A DNA stretch of 60,472 nt from assembly GCA_021813555.1 (NCBI GenBank), contig JAKAKG010000222.1, positions 1 to 60,472 of the forward strand. The letters run 5' to 3'. This DNA comes from Acidobacteriota bacterium (GTDB taxonomy: Bacteria > Acidobacteriota > UBA4820 > DSQY01). Below the pieces are notes generated by a model. The model did not search any database, was not told the DNA's origin, and saw only the letters and a program-made list of their open reading frames with translations. Shown here in pieces: positions 2,313 through 55,636 of the stretch (within the stretch, counting starts at the first letter, position 1; every line of letters begins with the position of its first letter). The translations under genes were made by a program, and so were the position numbers.

Positions 2313-3041
2313 TCAGGCCTTACCGGCGGGGCCGAAGGGGTCCCGCGAGGGCATGAGGTGGATCTCGTCCACGTTGGCTTCCGCCGGCTGGGAGAGGGCG
2401 TAGGACACGGCCTCGGCCACGGTTTGGGCAGCCATCATTGATTCCCTGGGAAGTTTGCCGCCGAAGGTGTTCCACGCCGGGGTGAGGGTCGCCCCGGGGA
2501 GGATGGCCGTGACCTTGACGCCTTTCGGAGCCGCCTCCAGACGCAGGGCCGCCAGGAAGCCCATGAGGCCCCACTTGCTGGCGCAGTAGGCGGTTTCCTG
2601 GGGGAACCCGATTTTGCCTGCGATGGAGGACAGGGCGATGACGTGGCCCGCGCCCTGCTTGTAGAAGTGGGGCAGAAGGTACTTGATCAAGAAGTAGGTG
2701 GACGTGAGGTTCGTGTCCAGGACCTGCCGCCACTCCTCCGTGGGGGTGGCCTCCAGCCGGTTCATGCGGAACACGCCGGCGCTGTGCACCACCGCGTTCA
2801 CGGCCCCGAAGGTCTTGAGGGACTCGGCCACGATGGCCCGGACGTCTTCCTCGACGGTCATGTCTCCGGGGATCGCCACCACCCGCTGTCCCCTGCTGGC
2901 CATCTCCCGGGCCGCCGCTTCGATCTTCTTGCGGTTCCGTCCCGTGAGCACGACCGTGTGATGCTCCCGTGCGAGTTGATCGGCCACGGCCTCGCCGATG
3001 CCCGAACTCGCCCCCGTCACCAGGATGATCTTCTTGTCCAT
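2313..3041 (-). CDS. Short-chain dehydrogenase/reductase
   Basis: TGASSGIG nucleotide-binding motif, HSAG, YCASK catalytic motif. Confidence 0.92.
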   Translation of the reverse strand: MDKKIILVTGASSGIGEAVADQLAREHHTVVLTGRNRKKIEAAAREMASRGQRVVAIPGDMTVEEDVRAIVAESLKTFGAVNAVVHSAGVFRMNRLEATPTEEWRQVLDTNLTSTYFLIKYLLPHFYKQGAGHVIALSSIAGKIGFPQETAYCASKWGLMGFLAALRLEAAPKGVKVTAILPGATLTPAWNTFGGKLPRESMMAAQTVAEAVSYALSQPAEANVDEIHLMPSRDPFGPAGKA

Positions 3042-3099
3042 GAACGCTCCAGAACCAGCTGTAAGTATAAACGAAGGGCCGAACGAGGGGAAGGGGAAA

Positions 3100-3332
3100 G
3101 GAGGATTCGGAAAGCGGAATTCGGAAAGCGGAAAGCGGAAAGGAGGGGGAGGAAGGCGGAAGGGGCGAATTCGGATTTGGGATTTTGGAAGGGGGCCCTT
3201 GTAGGCGAGGGTTGGGTTAATTCCTCACCGCTCACCGCTCACTGCTCACGTCCCTTGGGAAAAAGATCGCGCTCTGGAGAGCGCTCCTACAGCGGGCGAA
3301 TGGTGCCCCCTCCCCGCGTCTCGCGTCTCGCG
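3100..3332. repeat. Bipartite intergenic heptamer repeats: (GGAAAGC/GGAATTC)n and (GGATTTG)n, then (GCTCACC)n and (CGCGTCT)n
   Basis: Read directly: purine-rich tracts at ~3100-3190, pyrimidine-rich tracts at ~3222-3250 and ~3315-3332. Confidence 0.8.
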
Positions 3333-3347
3333 CTTTTCCGCGCGGGC

Positions 3348-3379
3348 AAAAAAAGAGCGGGCCCGCGGGCCCGCTCTTT
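3348..3379 (-). terminator. Rho-independent terminator of the fadL-GDSL operon
   Basis: Minus strand AAAGAGCGGGCC-CGCG-GGCCCGCTCTTTTTTT, just downstream of the stop at 3402. Confidence 0.85.
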
Positions 3380-3401
3380 CGTAACGTCTCGACGCCTGCC
3401 G

Positions 3402-4646
3402 CTACTTCTGCAGCGACGGACTTGAAGTGAGCTCCGAGTAAGCCGAAGAGGGGACGCTGATGGGCAGCGCGCCGGGAGACATGCGGAACCCCTGGGGATC
3501 GTTCAGGTTCACGTTCTGGACGTTCACCAGAGGCAGGGAGGTTCCGTAGTAGCTGTTGATCGCCTTGGTGGCCTCGCGGGCGATGACGGCCTGTCCCGTT
3601 ACGGTGGGATGGACGCCGTCCAATCCGAAGAGGCCGCCCAGGTATTCGGTGGTGAGCTTGACGCCGTTGGGCAGCATGTAGCCGTGCTTCTTGACCTTCG
3701 CCAGGAAGGAGTTGAAATCGAAGACAGGGCAGTGGAACTGGGCGGCCACGGCGTTGATGACGGCGTTGTCCGCGTCCACGATGGCCTGAATCTTGGGCAC
3801 GTCCGCGGCGTGGAGGATTTCGCCGGGGCCCAGGGGGCCCGGGTCCTTGCCCTCGAGGATGAGCTTGATGTGCTCGTGGGAGTAAGGCGTGGCGTAATCC
3901 TTCTTGGTCATGCCGAACTTGGCGATGGGCATGCCTTGGGCCGCGAGGGTGGAACCTTTGCTCAGGGCGGGGATCATGGTCACGTCGGGGATGTTGACCA
4001 GAAGCATCTTGGCGCCCGTCTGGGCCATGGAGCCCACGATGGCGGGATAGACCTGGGCGAAGACGGCCGCGGGCACGGTGTAGTTGGGGTTGCCGGTGGC
4101 GGCGCCACCGAGCACGTCGTTGCTGCCGATCCAGATGATCGCGAAGGTGGGCTGGAGGGTCGCCGCGAGGCCCACCTGGCTGGCCGGAGCGTGGCCCTGG
4201 AGGTAGACGCCGGGGAAGCCCAGGATGAGGTCAGTGAGGCTCGCCGGCGGAATGGCGGGCTTCAGGGTGAGGCAGTCCACCGACGTCTGGCCGGGGACGG
4301 CCAGATTCGTGGGCTGGCTCGCGGGATTCATCAGGGAGCCCATCTCGGTGGCGACGGGGACCAGAATGGGGAAGCCCGTCACCGGGTCAAAGCCCTGGAG
4401 CCTCTCTTGGATGGGGATGCCGGGGTAGCTGATGAGGGGCAGGGTGAGGGGATGGCCCGCCTTCTCAGAGATGAGGTTGGCGTAGCTCTTGGGTTGCCCG
4501 TATTCATTGAGCGACAGGCCGTAATAGCCCGCCGAGAGGCTATCGCCGAGCACCACGATCTTGCTGAAGTCGGGGGCCTGGGCGAAGGCGGCGGACGCCA
4601 CCAGGAGGCCCGCCGCGAGGATGAGCAGGGACTTTCTCAGGTTCAT
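3402..4646 (-). CDS. Secreted SGNH/GDSL hydrolase (lipase/esterase)
   Basis: Signal peptide, block I GDSLSAG, block II NLAVPG, block III IGSND, block V DGVHP. Confidence 0.9.
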   Translation of the reverse strand: MNLRKSLLILAAGLLVASAAFAQAPDFSKIVVLGDSLSAGYYGLSLNEYGQPKSYANLISEKAGHPLTLPLISYPGIPIQERLQGFDPVTGFPILVPVATEMGSLMNPASQPTNLAVPGQTSVDCLTLKPAIPPASLTDLILGFPGVYLQGHAPASQVGLAATLQPTFAIIWIGSNDVLGGAATGNPNYTVPAAVFAQVYPAIVGSMAQTGAKMLLVNIPDVTMIPALSKGSTLAAQGMPIAKFGMTKKDYATPYSHEHIKLILEGKDPGPLGPGEILHAADVPKIQAIVDADNAVINAVAAQFHCPVFDFNSFLAKVKKHGYMLPNGVKLTTEYLGGLFGLDGVHPTVTGQAVIAREATKAINSYYGTSLPLVNVQNVNLNDPQGFRMSPGALPISVPSSAYSELTSSPSLQK

Positions 4647-35432: not shown

Positions 35433-35508
35433 AACCCCAGAGGGCGCTTTTGCGTAAGTCCTCCTAGCTGACGGTGGAGTGCCGGCGGCTTTTCCTCACG
35501 GAGCGCCC

Positions 35509-36246
35509 ATGAATTGGCCCTTGGGAAAAAGAAACGGGAAGAACGGAAACGGCGGCAATGGCGCCATCATCGAGATGGCCTCCATCCGGAAGGTCTACGA
35601 TACGGGCAAGGTCCAGGTGGAGGCCCTTAAGGGCATTAATCTGGCGGTGCACAAGGGCGAATTCGTAGCCATCGTGGGGCCCTCGGGCTCGGGCAAATCC
35701 ACCCTCATGAATCTCATCGGATGCCTGGACACCCCTACGGACGGAACCTACCACCTCGCGGGCGAAGCCGTGGCCGGCCTGGATCGAGACCGCCTCGCGG
35801 ACGTGCGCAACCGCCGCGTCGGCTTCGTCTTCCAGAATTTCAACCTCCTGCCCCAGATCTCCGCCTTCGAGAACGTGGAGCTGCCCATGCTCTTCGGCGG
35901 CGTGGCCAAGGCGGAGCGCAAGAGCCGCGTGGAGGAACTGCTGGGGCGCGTGGGTCTGGCCGAGCGCATGGACCACAAGCCCACGGAGCTCTCAGGCGGC
36001 CAGATGCAACGCGTGGCCATCGCCCGGGCCCTGGCCATGAATCCCGACATCGTCCTCGCTGACGAACCCACGGGCAACCTGGACACGACCTCCGGAGGGG
36101 ACATCATGGGCCTCTTCAAGGAGCTGTGGGCCCAAGGCAGCACCCTCGTCGTGGTGACGCACGACATGGCCCTCGCGGATCGCGCGGGGCGCATCGTCGA
36201 GATCCGCGACGGCCGGGTGACGCGGGACACCGTCGCCGCGGCATAA
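35509..36246 (+). CDS. ABC ATPase (LolD/MacB-type)
   Basis: Walker A GPSGSGKS, LSGGQ, 'LADEPTGNLD', VTHD. Confidence 0.95.
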   Translation: MNWPLGKRNGKNGNGGNGAIIEMASIRKVYDTGKVQVEALKGINLAVHKGEFVAIVGPSGSGKSTLMNLIGCLDTPTDGTYHLAGEAVAGLDRDRLADVRNRRVGFVFQNFNLLPQISAFENVELPMLFGGVAKAERKSRVEELLGRVGLAERMDHKPTELSGGQMQRVAIARALAMNPDIVLADEPTGNLDTTSGGDIMGLFKELWAQGSTLVVVTHDMALADRAGRIVEIRDGRVTRDTVAAA

Positions 36247-51261: not shown

Positions 51262-52233
51262 CTAGCTCCCCGTCTCGATCAGCCCGTTCGCCGGCATGCC
51301 CGGCTTGAGGTCCATGCTGGGGTTGGGAACCGTGATCTTGATGCGGTAGACCAGCTTCACGCGCTCCTTCTCCGTCTGGACCATCTTGGGCGTGAACTCG
51401 GCCTCCTGCGAGATGAAGGTGACACGGCCTTCGAAGCGCTTGCCCGGGTAGGAGTCGGTGGTGATGGCCGCCTTCTGTCCCACCTTGACCCTGCCCAAAT
51501 CCCGCTCGTCGATGTAGGCTCTCAGGTAGACGTCGTTCAAATTTCCGAGGGTCACTACGGGCGTGCCGGGGACCACGTACTCTCCCGGTTCCACGTTTTT
51601 GGAGAGGACCACGCCCGCTTCGGGAGCCGTGAGCGCGGCGTAGCCCAACTGCGTCTTGGCCTGAGCCACGGCCTCGGTGGCTTGGGCCAGGTGGGCGCGG
51701 GCCTGGTCGATGTCCTCCCGGCGCGGCCCGTTGAGCACCAGGTCGTACTGCTGCTGGGCCTGGTTCACCCGGGCTTCGGCGGCGAGAAAAGCGGCGTGGG
51801 AGGCGTCGAACTCGCGAGGGGAAATGACGTTTTTCCTCAACAGCTCCGTGTTGCGCTTGTCGTCGGCCTGGGCGCGGCCCAGGTCCGCCTTAGCCTGATC
51901 GAGCTGGGCCCTGGCGGCGCCGATCTCTTCATGCCTGGAGCCGGCCAGGAGCTTGTCCAGGGCCGCCTTGGCGGCGTCGGCCTCGGCCTGGCGCAGGGCC
52001 ACCTGCTGCCTGAAATCCGTGTCGTCCAGCCTGGCGAGAAGCTGGCCCGCCTGGACGATCTGGCCCTCGTCCGCGGGGCGCTCGGCGACCCTTCCGGGGA
52101 CCTTGAAACTCGCTTCGACCTGGGTGACTTCGACGTTGCCCGAGGTCCGAAGAACCCCTTCTTGCGAGCCGGCGCACCCCATCACCAAGGCGGCGGCCAG
52201 GGCCCCCGCGCTCCAACGGCCGTAAGCTGTCAT
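51262..52233 (-). CDS. HlyD/YbhG-like membrane fusion lipoprotein
   Basis: Lipobox VMGC, 'SGNVE', coiled coil, 'AEFTPKMVQT..ER..LVYR', 'LKPGMP'. Confidence 0.9.
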   Translation of the reverse strand: MTAYGRWSAGALAAALVMGCAGSQEGVLRTSGNVEVTQVEASFKVPGRVAERPADEGQIVQAGQLLARLDDTDFRQQVALRQAEADAAKAALDKLLAGSRHEEIGAARAQLDQAKADLGRAQADDKRNTELLRKNVISPREFDASHAAFLAAEARVNQAQQQYDLVLNGPRREDIDQARAHLAQATEAVAQAKTQLGYAALTAPEAGVVLSKNVEPGEYVVPGTPVVTLGNLNDVYLRAYIDERDLGRVKVGQKAAITTDSYPGKRFEGRVTFISQEAEFTPKMVQTEKERVKLVYRIKITVPNPSMDLKPGMPANGLIETGS

Positions 52234-52967
52234 GCCCGGTCCTCCTTCTTTCGGATCTGTCGCGCGGCGGGCTCGTGGGCGCTCCGCGCGGTTTTGCTTG
52301 AGCCGTGCCGCGTTCTCGGTTCAGCAGAGGCCTCGGGCCTTATGAGAAGGCCTCGGAGGACCAGGTCCGCCACGGCGCGGCCCGGGGCCTCCGGCCAGGC
52401 CGGCAGGGAGGTTCCTGCCGTCTTGGCGATGCGCCCGCTCATGGGCTTGGCCACGATGTGGAGCATGGTTCCCACCACCAGAAGAATGTGTAGGGTGGCG
52501 GGGTGAACCTTCCGGAAACAGCCCTTGGCGGAAGTGCTGCAGATGATGGACTGTTCCAGGGCGATGATCCGCCCCAGGGCTTTGATCATGGGTTCGGTCA
52601 AGTCCTTCCCGCCCGTGGCCAGTTCGCGCAGGATGATGCGCGGCATGTAGGGCCGGACCCGTGCCACGGACTCGAAGGCCTCCGCAATGGCCGCAATCTG
52701 GCCCTCGGGAGTAGCGGCTTTGGCGACGCCCTCCTGAACGGCCGACCACATGGATGCCAAGGCCTCCGAAATGACCATGTCGTAAAGAGCCGCCTTGCCG
52801 CCCACGTGGTAGTAGAGCATGGCTTTGTTCACGCCGGCCCTTCGCGCGATGGCGTCGACCCTGGCGCCGGAGAACCCCCTCGCGCCGAACTCCGCGGCAG
52901 CGGCGCGGAGGATGGCACTCCGCGGGTTTTTGGGGGAAAGCGCGTGGGCGGGGTCGGCCATGATCAT
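52230..52967 (-). CDS. TetR/AcrR-family regulator
   Basis: HTH 'ILRAAAAEF..GFSGARVDAIARRAGVNKAMLYYH..GK'. Confidence 0.93.
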   Translation of the reverse strand: MIMADPAHALSPKNPRSAILRAAAAEFGARGFSGARVDAIARRAGVNKAMLYYHVGGKAALYDMVISEALASMWSAVQEGVAKAATPEGQIAAIAEAFESVARVRPYMPRIILRELATGGKDLTEPMIKALGRIIALEQSIICSTSAKGCFRKVHPATLHILLVVGTMLHIVAKPMSGRIAKTAGTSLPAWPEAPGRAVADLVLRGLLIRPEASAEPRTRHGSSKTARSAHEPAARQIRKKEDRA

Positions 52968-52992
52968 CTCCGTGGGTCAACCATAAGGTTTA

Positions 52993-53035
52993 ACCAACTA
53001 GTTGGTAATATGGGCCGCCTCAAGGCGGCTGTCAA
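52993..53035 (-). promoter_or_regulatory. sigma70 promoter with adjacent palindromic TetR-type operator
   Basis: Minus strand TTGACA (53035-53030)-17 nt-CATATT (53012-53007), followed directly by the perfect palindrome ACCAACTAGTTGGT (52993-53006). Confidence 0.75.
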
Positions 53036-53048
53036 GGGGTCCGGGCAG

Positions 53049-53255
53049 GGGGATTCGAATTCGGAATTCGGAAAGCGGAAAGCGGAATTCGGAAAGCGGA
53101 ATTCGGAAAGGGAGGAGATGGACCACCGAGGACACCAAGAACACCAAGGGAGAGATGGGGACGTGGAATATGCGAGGGGAAAGGCGGCGTCGCAGCTTGC
53201 GTGGCTGTTCTCCTGATCTTTCGATCACCCGATTACCCGCTCACGTCTCGCGCCT
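53049..53255. repeat. Composite intergenic repeat: (GGAATTC/GGAAAGC)x~8, nonamer (ACACCAAGR), octamer (CGATYACC), CGTCTCG
   Basis: Read directly; the heptamer tract closely matches that at ~3100-3140. Confidence 0.8.
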
Positions 53256-53322
53256 GCGCTCTTGACCTGCGCGGCGAGGTGAGCTAGGGTTTCCTCAACG
53301 GGCAGTGCCCGGGGAGGACGTC

Positions 53323-53397
53323 ATGGCTCAGGCTATCCGCAATTCTTTCGCAGACCCTGCGGCCTATTATTACTACGCCCTCTCCCTGCCGCCTTAG
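53323..53397 (+). CDS. Tyrosine-rich leader peptide MAQAIRNSFADPAAYYYYALSLPP (24 aa)
   Basis: RBS GGGGAGGA, ATG 53323, four consecutive Tyr codons TAT TAT TAC TAC (53365-53376), TAG 53395-53397; directly upstream of tyrA. Confidence 0.85.
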   Translation: MAQAIRNSFADPAAYYYYALSLPP

Positions 53398-53455
53398 GCG
53401 CGCCCGACGCGTTGACACGAATGGGGCCCGCCGAGGTGGCGGGCCCTTTGCCTTC
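53390..53455 (+). terminator. Attenuator: terminator hairpin with a mutually exclusive antiterminator
   Basis: Stem GGGCCCGCC (53424-53432)/GGCGGGCCC (53438-53446) plus TTTG. GGCGCGCCC (53397-53405) can pair 8/9 with the 5' arm; CGCC-TTA-GGCG spans the stop codon. Confidence 0.78.
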
Positions 53456-53493
53456 CACCGTGGCGGAATCCATGAAATCTGAGGAGACCCGTC

Positions 53494-54627
53494 ATGGAAA
53501 CCAAATCGGAACGGCCACGTACCCCCCAAAGGAGGCCGGCGGCCTCCGCCCTCGATCGCCACCGCTCCGCCATCGAAGCGCTCGACGGCCGCATTCTCAA
53601 GCTCGTGGCGCGCCGCCTGCGGGTGGCCAAATCCGTCGGCGAACTGAAGGGCTCATGCGGCATCCCCCTCCGAAAATTTGAGGTGGAGGCGCAGGTATGC
53701 GAACGCCTTTCAAGCCTCGCCGAACGTCTGGGGCAAGATCGAACGCTGGGGGGAGATCTGGCCCTTTTCCTCATCGGGCGGTCCCTCGAAACGCAGGCAC
53801 CCATCCTGGAGTCGGCCTACGCCGGGGACCGGCTCAAGGCGCTGGTGGTGGGCGGCATGGGCGGCATGGGGCGCTGGATCGCCGGCTTCCTCTCCAGCCA
53901 GGGCCACGCCGTCAGGGTGCTCGACCCGGCTCAGGGAGAGTGCCGGTGGGGCCGGGCGGAGAACTTGGAATGGGGCGCTTCCTGGGCCGATCTGGTGGTG
54001 GTGTCCGTTCCCATGAGCCGCTGCGCCGGCGTCCTCGAGTCCGTCGGCGCCGCCCATCCCAAGGGCGTGGTAGCGGAACTGTGCAGCCTCAAGGGGCATC
54101 TTCTGCCCACCCTTGAGCGCCTACGATCGGGAGGCACGCGGGTGGTGTCCTTCCACCCCATGTTCGGTCCCGACGTACGGATGCTCAGCGGCCGAACCAT
54201 CGTCGTGTGCTCGGAGGGCCATGAGGCGGACCGTTCTCTGGTGAAGGGCCTTTTCGCCTCCACAAGCGCTCACTTGGTTGAGATGGACGTCCCGGAGCAC
54301 GATCGCAGAATGGGGGCCGTTCTGGGACTGTCTCACCTCGTCAACCTGGCCTTCGCCAGGGCCCTGTCCCTTTCAGGCAGGCCCTTTTCGGATCTCGGGG
54401 CCGCCTCGGGCGTGACCTTCCAGAAGCAGGTCTCCACGGCGCTGGACGTGGTGGGGGAGAACCCCGGCCTCTATTACGAGATCCAGGCCCTCAACGCCGT
54501 GACGCCGGAGACGTTTTCATGGATGGAGCGCGCGCTGTCCGACTATCGCGAGGCGGTGGCGCGGGGAGAGGAAGAGACTTTTGTCGCCCTCATGAAGGAG
54601 AGCGCCGCCTACTTCCAAGGCGGATAA
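53494..54627 (+). CDS. tyrA: Bifunctional chorismate mutase/prephenate dehydrogenase
   Basis: AroQ domain 'R..I..LD..IL.L...R...A..VG..K', Rossmann 'VVGGMGGMG', 'SLK', 'HPMFGP', 'HDRRM..V.GLSH'. Confidence 0.9.
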   Translation: METKSERPRTPQRRPAASALDRHRSAIEALDGRILKLVARRLRVAKSVGELKGSCGIPLRKFEVEAQVCERLSSLAERLGQDRTLGGDLALFLIGRSLETQAPILESAYAGDRLKALVVGGMGGMGRWIAGFLSSQGHAVRVLDPAQGECRWGRAENLEWGASWADLVVVSVPMSRCAGVLESVGAAHPKGVVAELCSLKGHLLPTLERLRSGGTRVVSFHPMFGPDVRMLSGRTIVVCSEGHEADRSLVKGLFASTSAHLVEMDVPEHDRRMGAVLGLSHLVNLAFARALSLSGRPFSDLGAASGVTFQKQVSTALDVVGENPGLYYEIQALNAVTPETFSWMERALSDYREAVARGEEETFVALMKESAAYFQGG

Positions 54628-54682: not shown

Positions 54683-55636
54683 TCAGCCTTGTCCCTCCGC
54701 CAGCCACCGTTCGCAGTCGAGGGCGGCCATGCATCCGCTGCCCGCGGCGGAAATGGCCTGCCGATACACCTTGTCCTGGACGTCGCCGGCGGCGAAAACT
54801 CCCTCCACCGAAGTCCGCGTCGAACGGCCCAGGGTGACGATATACCCCGTTTCGTCGAGGTCGAGCTGTCCCTGAAAGAGCTTCGTGTTGGGCGTGTGGC
54901 CGATGGCGTAGAAGAGGCCCGCGGCTTCCACCGTGCGCTCCTTCCCATCGGGAAGGTGCCGAATGACCACGCCTCGCAGCCCCGTCTCCCCCACCGCGTC
55001 CACCACGGCCGAATTCCACATGACCATGATCTTCTTGTCCTCGATTACGCGCTTCTGCATGGCCTTGGAGGCGCGGAACTCGCCCCGGCGGTGCACCAGG
55101 ATGACCTTGGAGGCGAAATGGGTGAGGTACATGGCCTCTTCCATGGCGGTGTCGCCCCCGCCCACGACCACCAGGACGCGATCCCGGAAAATGGGCAGGC
55201 CGCCGTCGCACACGGCGCACGCGGAGATCCCCCTGTTCCAGAGGCGCTCCTCGGCGGGGATGGCCAGCCGCTTGGCCGTGGCCCCCGTGGCGATGATGAG
55301 GGCCCGGGCGCTGACAGTTTGGGACCCCGATTTGACCACGAAGGGCCGTGAGGACAGGTCCACCGATTCAACGTCCTCCGTCTCGATGCGGGTTCCGAAG
55401 CGCTCGCTCTGAGCACGCATGCGCTCCATCAGCTCGGGCCCCGTGATGCCTTCGGGAAAGCCGGGGAAGTTCTCCACCTCGGTGGTGGTCATGAGCTGTC
55501 CGCCGGCGACGCCTCCGGAGATGAATCCTTCAAACATGAACGGCCGCAAGTTGGCTCGGGCCGAGTAAATGGCCGCCGCATGCCCGGCGGGCCCCGATCC
55601 TATGATGACGACCTTTTCCATCCTATGCTCGGACAT
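54683..55636 (-). CDS. trxB: Thioredoxin reductase
   Basis: GSGPAG, '[14 protein letters not shown]', CAVCDG, '[10 protein letters not shown]', 'HRR..FRA', 'AAGDV'. Confidence 0.96.

Follow-up and report, generated by a model that had tools for sequence, protein, structure and literature searches.

What controls tyrA in an Acidobacteriota bacterium in which the gene is preceded by a short open reading frame (ORF) with four tyrosine (Tyr) codons in a row? The locus lies on contig JAKAKG010000222.1, in a window of 60,472 nucleotides (nt), which is the whole stretch of DNA analysed here. It comes from a metagenome-assembled genome (MAG) of the Thermoanaerobaculia (Acidobacteriota; 235 contigs, 98.6% complete, 65% G+C). 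The tyrA gene (53494-54627, plus strand) encodes a bifunctional chorismate mutase/prephenate dehydrogenase of 377 amino acids, and all of the leader features described below sit in the last 230 nt of the spacer upstream of it. We propose that this region is probably a ribosome-mediated (leader-peptide) transcription attenuator that would sense charged tRNA-Tyr and control tyrA, a reading drawn from sequence and from modelled RNA folds. It is supported chiefly by the conservation of an upstream ORF (uORF) with a Tyr cluster, followed by a hairpin, before orthologous tyrA genes, and also by folding under a ribosome constraint and by a compensatory base change. Coupled transcription and translation in the host, termination at the hairpin and a change in readthrough with Tyr supply are what we infer from this evidence.

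A tyrosine-codon leader precedes tyrA in many close relatives

The candidate leader begins with a promoter-like site on the plus strand, in which a -35 element (TTGACC, 53262-53267) and a -10 element (TAGGGT, 53285-53290) are separated by a 17-nt spacer. A Shine-Dalgarno (SD) sequence, GGAGG (53313-53317), stands 5 nt before the ATG of a leader ORF of 24 codons plus TAG (53323-53397), with the translation MAQAIRNSFADPAAYYYYALSLPP; in the ORF list, the frame is taken from a GTG further upstream and spans 53305..53397. Four Tyr codons in a row, TAT TAT TAC TAC, occupy 53365-53376. The promoter-like sequence, the ribosome-binding site (RBS) and the 24-codon ORF had all been proposed in the initial annotation, and a base-by-base check places each of them where it was claimed to be. 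A TTGAC(C/G/A)-17-TAnnnT pair recurs at an equal distance upstream of the uORF in relatives from the window's own genus (g1, in which the sites were aligned) and from two other genera (g3 and g4), and this conservation of position in three genera speaks against transcription of tyrA from a site beyond the hairpin. In the g1 alignment, GGGGAGGA is kept ahead of the ATG/GTG start. The uORF is short and translatable and has its own RBS, with SD and start codon both conserved in g1; judged from these sequence features, the leader is probably translated, and the promoter may be active.

The search for relatives covered 41 genomes, with strong TyrA matches in g1, g3 and g4, and was extended to wider collections of genome and metagenome contigs. 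What the uORFs of the relatives have in common is only a Tyr cluster that lies a few codons ahead of the stop, the position of the stop being kept, and then a G+C hairpin. Leaders in g1 end in AAYDYYLPTTPA, TPVYYCVSPDTA, NAAYYYYLPAMPS or LSLYDYGSP, and those in g3 in FAYLYYYAPAPPPPAP, VAYAYYYAFDPS(C/S)PAP or SEYRYYYAPALPPPAP, each directly before the stop codon. In g4, the tails read ..SAFAYAYRPSG.., ..ASYAYRPQG.. and ..PFLYGYRTEG.., and the wider collections add leaders that end, again at the stop codon, in AYYAYTRVEPSRRRSH, TYAYIGGPPCRRRSC, (G/S)YYYVFNSCQRPPV, GYGYY..QRPPV or AVYYAVSCRGRRKPV. In 35 loci, a hairpin of this type is kept at a distance of 55-71 nt upstream of the tyrA start.

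The frequency of this arrangement was assessed with a fixed rule, which called for a hairpin at 35-130 nt upstream of the start codon and a frame ending at the hairpin with at least two Tyr in four codons. The close set comprised 50 loci whose TyrA shares at least 49% identity with that of the window, of which 45 were evaluated after removal of two duplicates and three loci without upstream DNA. The distant set (TyrA less than 45% identical) comprised 69 loci, and 59 of these were evaluated after removal of two duplicates and eight loci with too little upstream sequence. By the rule, 25 of the 45 close loci carry the Tyr cluster and hairpin; after inspection the number is 28, as three loci (L098, L102 and L103) have both by eye and were missed because of the start estimate or a variant stem. 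As the relatives cannot be taken as independent, the figures stand for a trait of the clade as a whole and not for 28 separate events. None of the 59 distant loci has the combination (one has a hairpin with a single Tyr), nor does any of 47 reverse-complemented sequences of the close set. Tyr-run uORFs upstream of tyrA in related genomes, which the initial annotation had looked to as a check, are therefore present, and the run is conserved in relatives.

A subgroup of leaders that end in RRRSH before the stop (L027, L030, L037-L045, L090 and L092) has its GTG or ATG only ~7-10 nt after a TAnnAT -10-like box. Translation of these leaders may start on a leaderless or nearly leaderless transcript, as the sequence gives no room for a normal SD.

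Predicted switch between antiterminator and terminator

Under the proposed mechanism, transcription would start at the promoter at 53262-53290, and a ribosome would translate the 24-codon leader while RNA polymerase makes the next ~120 nt. When Tyr-tRNA is scarce, the ribosome would stall on one of the Tyr codons at 53365-53376, with its 3' edge at most at ~53386-53389. The segment 53386-53405 would then be free to pair with the emerging 53424-53442, and the polymerase would continue into tyrA. When Tyr-tRNA is ample, the ribosome would reach the TAG at 53395-53397 and cover the RNA to ~53407-53410. The antiterminator would be blocked, the 10-bp terminator at 53423-53447 with its UUU would form, and transcription would end before tyrA.

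The predicted structures fit this scheme. In the constrained fold, the terminator (53423-53450) has a 10-bp stem (53423-53432 with 53438-53447) and the loop GAGGU, and is followed by TTTG. Its arms GGGCCCGCC (53424-53432) and GGCGGGCCC (53438-53446) and the TTTG (53447-53450) lie at the positions claimed for them in the initial annotation; CCTT follows, the distance to tyrA is 44 nt, and the hairpin alone folds with -21.5 to -23 kcal/mol. In minimum-free-energy folds, the 5' strand of the antiterminator (53386-53405) consists of the end of the uORF, the stop codon and the 8 nt beyond it. The helix pairs 53386-53395 with 53433-53442, 53397-53400 with 53429-53432 and 53402-53405 with 53424-53427; overall, 53386-53405 pairs with 53424-53442, which consumes the 5' arm of the terminator and half of its 3' arm. 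The pairing of GGCGCGCCC (53397-53405) with GGGCCCGCC that had been put forward as the whole antiterminator is correctly positioned, but it is interrupted by a C-C mismatch and forms only the inner part of this longer helix.

Without constraint, the 211-nt leader is more stable than shuffled sequences (z = -3.4; 1 of 200 shuffles as good) and is dominated by one long helix. We then masked the footprint of a ribosome, from 18 nt before to 12 nt after the A site, and refolded the RNA. A ribosome whose A site is at the first or the fourth Tyr codon allows the antiterminator to form (from 53386/53387), and no terminator is seen; one whose A site is at the stop codon masks the antiterminator strand, and the 10-bp terminator forms. 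All four Tyr positions permit the antiterminator, because the fourth Tyr codon starts exactly 12 nt before its first base. The expectation that a stall on Tyr leads to readthrough and arrival at the stop to termination is thus borne out by the constrained folds. Another element of the initial annotation, a 4-bp 1:2 stem (CGCC/GGCG) over the stop codon, is absent from every fold of the window leader. No 1:2 (anti-antiterminator/pause) hairpin is seen in these folds, a feature that defines the trp type and not all leader-peptide attenuators. The window version is a three-segment one with no evident 1:2 stem, so that an untranslated leader should default to readthrough.

Across 23 leaders, folding at equilibrium with the terminator 3' arm included gives the antiterminator at Tyr positions in 13 and the terminator at every ribosome position in 10; for these 10, the model needs kinetic, co-transcriptional trapping. 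The equilibrium test was replaced by a co-transcriptional measure, for which the RNA was cut off at the terminator loop, a stage at which the 3' arm has yet to be made. With the ribosome on codons of the Tyr cluster (equivalent codons were used in L042, which has no Tyr there), 7-9 of the 9-10 nt of the terminator 5' arm are paired upstream in 20 of the 23 leaders, in folds of about -20 to -38 kcal/mol. With the ribosome at the stop codon, only 0-4 nt of the arm are paired, and the shift from one state to the other occurs 2-3 codons past the last Tyr. The remaining three leaders, from g4, have a classical 1:2 / 2:3 / 3:4 arrangement. Segment 1 (CCGGCCC) follows directly after the Tyr codons and pairs with GGGCCGG, which alternatively pairs with a CCGGCCC overlapping the terminator 5' arm; in the model, a stalled ribosome covers segment 1. 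The same attenuation logic appears, in these alignments and modelled folds, in three layouts across the relatives.

Covariation and codon usage across leaders

We aligned 23 leaders of the type in which the antiterminator is embedded in the ORF. The antiterminator core, GCCGGCG with CGCCGGC, is paired in 98.8% of 161 cells. The observed covariation score and paired fraction are reached by none of 500 shuffles, and slid registers pair in 24-62% of cells. One of the core pairs is G-C in 18 sequences and A-U in five, a compensatory change of the kind that the initial annotation had sought in relatives; the five A-U sequences all belong to the subgroup ending in QRPPV, so the change may have arisen only once. 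In the terminator, 99% of cells are paired, and the changes are one-sided, from G-C to G-U only.

The GCCGGCG motif is read in different frames, as Pro-Ala in g3 and as Ser/Cys-Arg-Arg in the RRRSH group. Given that the peptides are otherwise unconserved and that the reading frame of the motif varies, selection appears to act on the codons and the RNA and not on the peptide. Within the last 20 codons of the 23 leaders, Tyr accounts for 55 of 460 codons (12.0%), compared with 2.59% of 714,387 codons in a crude reference set of 2,329 high-GC3 ORFs from the window genome (the leaders themselves are from several genomes). At this genome-wide frequency, the run of four Tyr codons is far from what chance would give. 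TAT makes up 28 of the 55 Tyr codons (51%), versus 16% genome-wide, and TAY triplets in the leader stretches number 55 in frame and 0 and 6 in the other frames, these frames having been chosen with knowledge of the Tyr positions.

Observations against tyrosine-sensing attenuation

Several observations weigh against the proposed attenuator, in addition to the choice of frames, the possibly single compensatory event and the 10 leaders with an equilibrium terminator described above. The antiterminator complementarity on its own is only moderately unusual. Pairing of 53377-53410 with the terminator amounts to -38.5 kcal/mol, a value that 33 of 2000 dinucleotide shuffles (~1-2%) and 36 of 2992 random 34-mers from the window also attain, and complementarity this moderate in G+C-rich RNA means that one sequence alone would not carry the claim. 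A consensus promoter scan did not flag 53262-53290, which is explained by a -10 element that matches in only three of six bases, and a consensus terminator scan did not call the hairpin at 53423-53450. The tail of the terminator, TTTGCCTT, has a short U-tract, and in six relatives (L003, L006, L028, L033, L041 and L043) the U-tract is nearly absent. Many other relatives have good U-tracts, from TTTT to TTTTTTTT. Hairpins at gene ends in the window genome and in relatives carry comparable tails, for example TTTTCGTT, TTTCTATT and TTGAACGG, and with such short T runs at gene ends a short U-tract may be normal in this host. To our knowledge, coupling of transcription and translation has not been shown in Acidobacteriota. 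In a search of sequencing runs, no RNA run was listed as containing the stretch, and three metatranscriptome runs contained next to none of its sequence words.

The close loci also include exceptions. Four of the 45 (L028, L029, L091 and L032) have a mixed Phe/Tyr cluster (FGFFY). Four others have at most one Tyr in the uORF: L041, L043 and L096 have one each, and L042 has none in the frame common to it and its relatives and a single one in another frame. In L037, as assembled, an indel puts an AYYAY cluster out of frame. The leader is disrupted in one of the 45 loci (L002/L022), and seven (L007, L026, L031, L035, L036, L046 and L095) have no leader, with tyrA directly behind another gene in several of them.

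Some of these exceptions are of interest in themselves. In L028, L029, L091, L089 and L032, the Phe/Tyr cluster (GFGFFYP.. or AFYF) replaces the Tyr run, which suggests that the sensed amino acid has shifted or broadened in this subgroup. L032 lacks ~25 nt with the terminator hairpin, which is otherwise identical in its relatives, such as L028; this could be a natural deletion, which would make tyrA constitutive, or an assembly collapse. In L002/L022, the closest relative (TyrA 97% identical), unrelated DNA of low G+C content replaces the promoter and the leader ORF up to the stop codon, and the terminator and tyrA are intact. The replacement, ~100 nt upstream of the terminator, lies where a 3.4-kb contig of genome G003 with low coverage begins, and may reflect the insertion of a mobile element or a chimeric assembly.

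Alternative explanations

A Tyr-sensing uORF might act mainly by a route other than intrinsic termination, either through Rho-dependent termination or polarity upon early release of the ribosome, or through control of translation by a chain of hairpins that reaches the tyrA RBS. The U-tract, short in the window and nearly lost in several relatives that still conserve the hairpin, would fit such a route, as would the tightly held distance from hairpin to start codon; the good U-tracts of many relatives and the short T runs at gene ends in the host speak for ordinary termination. The region after the terminator is relevant here. A segment of 17 nt, GCCTTCCACCGTGGCGG (53450-53466, plus strand), is almost invariant in five g1 sequences of the alignment, and analogous segments exist in other subgroups. 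It is complementary to the loop and 3' arm of the terminator, and its pairing with 53427-53445 is the strongest local hairpin (-27.6 kcal/mol). In all constrained folds, a further hairpin (53458-53497) encloses the tyrA RBS (GAGGAG, 53481-53486) and pairs the tyrA AUG: the 3' half of the conserved segment makes a 9-bp stem with the tyrA start (53458-53466 with 53489-53497), with the SD inside. We modelled the accessibility of the tyrA SD-AUG region in 26 leaders under three ribosome states, and it does not differ between the two states of the switch (mean 0.48 both for a ribosome stalled at Tyr and for one at the stop; higher on stalling in 4 of 26 and at the stop in 6 of 26). As there is no systematic change, translational attenuation was rejected as a separate candidate and is kept only as part of this explanation, which we regard as unlikely. 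That the locus does not sense Tyr at all is clearly less probable still. The hairpin would then be a constitutive terminator, an insulator or a mRNA-stabilising stem-loop, and the ORF a micropeptide gene or an untranslated frame with its Tyr codons due to other causes. G+C hairpins do pair easily at 65% G+C, a covariance model of the leader mostly matched ordinary gene-end terminators elsewhere, and some relatives have no Tyr codon or one only. Set against this, neither the ORF list nor the domain search shows a plus-strand gene that ends upstream of the leader, the neighbour being a divergent TetR-family gene. Within the peptide, nothing but the Tyr cluster is conserved, and this cluster always lies just 5' of the point where a ribosome starts to block the antiterminator. 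Its presence in 28 close loci and in no distant one, always before the Tyr-synthesis gene, is hard to reconcile with a structure indifferent to Tyr, and the only intergenic Tyr-cluster uORF of the genome that passes a crude filter is the tyrA leader itself.

Two further alternatives would keep a regulatory leader and change what it senses or how. Nascent-peptide arrest of the TnaC kind, in which free tyrosine would be sensed by a stall near the Pro-rich C-terminus (LSLPP before the stop), is suggested by the Pro-Pro-stop end of the window leader and by the Pro-rich ends of many relatives (PAP, PPV), and Pro-stop contexts terminate slowly. The peptide is unconserved outside the Tyr cluster, however, and the Pro codons fall on the C-rich antiterminator strand, the same RNA motif being read elsewhere as Arg-Arg-Arg. 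Moreover, a ribosome stalled at the stop codon would promote the terminator, so that free Tyr would repress, and no Tyr codons would be needed; we consider such arrest highly improbable. The least probable of the alternatives considered is a ribosome-independent leader, be it a T-box, a riboswitch or a protein-binding leader of the TRAP or PyrR kind. Tyr genes are indeed described as T-box regulated in Firmicutes (PMC1262725), but the leader here is only ~160 nt long, consists mostly of the uORF and two helices, and has no conserved unpaired block besides the Tyr codons. No Rfam family matches 52900-53700 even at E values up to 10, apart from three sub-threshold, unrelated matches (the best, a small RNA on the other strand, at E = 0.12), and neither a T-box nor the Trp, His, Leu, Thr or Phe leader families match at the locus. 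Attenuation by a ribosome translating the Tyr codons remains our preferred reading.

Genomic context and searches for further targets

The assignment of tyrA is based on the Pfam domains CM_2, PDH_N and PDH_C. Its best NCBIfam match is NF008400 (bifunctional chorismate mutase/prephenate dehydrogenase), which is full length and scores 128 bits against a cut-off of 273. The next gene (54683-55636, minus strand), a thioredoxin-reductase-like gene with a Pyr_redox_2 domain by Pfam, is convergent, and tyrA is thus monocistronic. With Pfam models, the CM_2 domain of TyrA is the sole chorismate mutase found in the genome. Neither a prephenate dehydratase (PF00800) nor an AroH-type mutase (PF07736) was found with these models, an absence that 98.6% completeness leaves unproven. 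With a single chorismate mutase within TyrA and no prephenate dehydratase found, flux through TyrA appears committed to Tyr, and if prephenate does go to Tyr, a sensor for Tyr alone makes sense. The host may be a Phe auxotroph or may use an unrecognised enzyme for phenylalanine.

The spacer of ~525 nt separates tyrA from the upstream TetR-family gene (52230-52967, minus strand), identified by domain search. Facing this gene is TTGACA-17-CATATT (53007-53035, minus strand), the only promoter-like site in the spacer that was called by the scan. Directly upstream of the leader promoter, at 53053-53110, are tandem repeats with a period of 7/14/21 (unit GAATTCGGAAAGCG, ~4 copies). Short heptamer-like tandem repeats also precede the tyrA leaders of relatives and another gene in the same genome, and they may be an intergenic repeat typical of the lineage.

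We searched 29 genomes of the order with a covariance model built from 23 leaders, and it matched tyrA leaders and many bare terminators. Eight full-length matches away from tyrA were inspected as candidates for a second target of a Tyr regulon; all eight are ordinary gene-end terminators, and no second target gene was found by this model among the 29 genomes. A six-frame scan of the genome for clusters of Trp, His, Phe, Tyr, Cys or Met codons was too noisy at 65% G+C, even with a crude coding mask. One Phe-rich leader candidate in the window (~35499-35570, minus strand) overlaps the end of the upstream gene and was dropped. No leader is present at the three DAHP_synth_1 matches in the genome. 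One of these genes (contig C96, ~2550-3650) directly follows a gene that by eye resembles tryptophan synthase alpha at its C-terminus, an arrangement that suggests a trp/aro operon. The trpE gene lies at a contig edge (C194), and its leader region is not visible.

Relation to known systems and significance

Classical attenuation is a textbook mechanism for Trp, His, Phe, Thr, Leu and Ile/Val. The window leader shares with trpL, hisL and leuL of Proteobacteria the logic by which a stalled ribosome selects the antiterminator. Its four consecutive regulatory codons resemble leuL, and the g4 relatives show the full 1:2 / 2:3 / 3:4 arrangement; it differs from these leaders in its amino acid, in the lack of homology and in its three-segment layout. 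Our full-text literature search found no Tyr-specific leader-peptide attenuator, although subscription journals were mostly outside its reach and a prior description is possible. The outcome fits the view of the initial annotation that the type is rarely if ever documented. In a 2005 comparative paper, His, Thr and Phe are given as attenuator-regulated and Tyr as T-box-regulated (PMC1262725).

Elsewhere, Tyr-dependent control is described as TyrR repression of aroF-tyrA in Escherichia coli (PMC11802643) and as Tyr T-boxes in Firmicutes (PMC1262725). These systems do the same physiological job, and according to those accounts they work through a DNA-binding protein or through uncharged tRNA acting on the RNA. 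For E. coli aroF-tyrA, control of an attenuation type was hypothesised in 1980, as related in PMC8632094. Predicted attenuators in Acidobacteriota are reported to be almost all unannotated (PMC2965389).

The closest functional analogue is E. coli pheL-pheA, which PMC11802643 presents as a uORF rich in codons for the end product, with a terminator, a response to charged tRNA and a sister bifunctional chorismate-mutase enzyme. The tyrA leader differs in having Tyr and not Phe codons, a chorismate mutase-prephenate dehydrogenase and not a dehydratase, a host in the Acidobacteriota and no sequence or Rfam match to pheL, and also in the predicted readthrough of the window version when untranslated, since it has no 1:2 stem. 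Closest in content is aroR-aroF of Corynebacterium glutamicum, an aromatic-pathway leader-peptide attenuator with Phe-Tyr-Phe (PMC11802643, citing Neshat 2014). It controls 3-deoxy-D-arabinoheptulosonate 7-phosphate (DAHP) synthase and responds to Phe limitation, Tyr availability being without effect in the account given there (PMC11802643). The aroR leader has one Tyr flanked by Phe, whereas that of the window has a run of four Tyr; the FGFFY/AFYF subgroup is nearer to aroR than the window leader is. Another computationally found uORF beside a terminator stem in the aromatic pathway is the uORFC-13-1 motif of Acholeplasma aroF, from a 2021 survey (PMC8632094). This motif has Phe codons, precedes another gene in another phylum, and is unrelated in sequence to the tyrA leader.

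With slightly more confidence than doubt, we extend the proposal to the lineage as a whole. The window leader would be a founding member of a family of Tyr-specific leader-peptide attenuators ('tyrL') across the Thermoanaerobaculia, with three interconvertible architectures (three-segment, ORF-embedded GCCGGCG antiterminator and classical four-segment). Some lineages would have drifted to mixed Phe/Tyr sensing, and a second conserved layer, formed by 53450-53466 and the RBS hairpin, may couple the transcriptional decision to the translation of tyrA. If this family reading is true, it fills a long-standing gap, Tyr alone among the aromatic amino acids having had no known attenuator of the classical kind.

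What is new in the proposal is the amino-acid specificity (Tyr) and a little-studied phylum; the mechanism is a known one, and the surprise for a specialist would be moderate. The leader has a recognisable signature by which the regulation of tyrA could be annotated in these MAGs, and it would offer a compact Tyr-responsive part. The relatives form a natural series for the evolution of attenuators, with Tyr counts from four to one (and none in one uORF), mixed Phe/Tyr clusters, and variants that are terminator-less or disrupted as assembled. If the attenuator is real, classical attenuation has also been recruited for Tyr and is used in the Acidobacteriota, and a single order would show one regulatory logic built anew in three or more RNA layouts.

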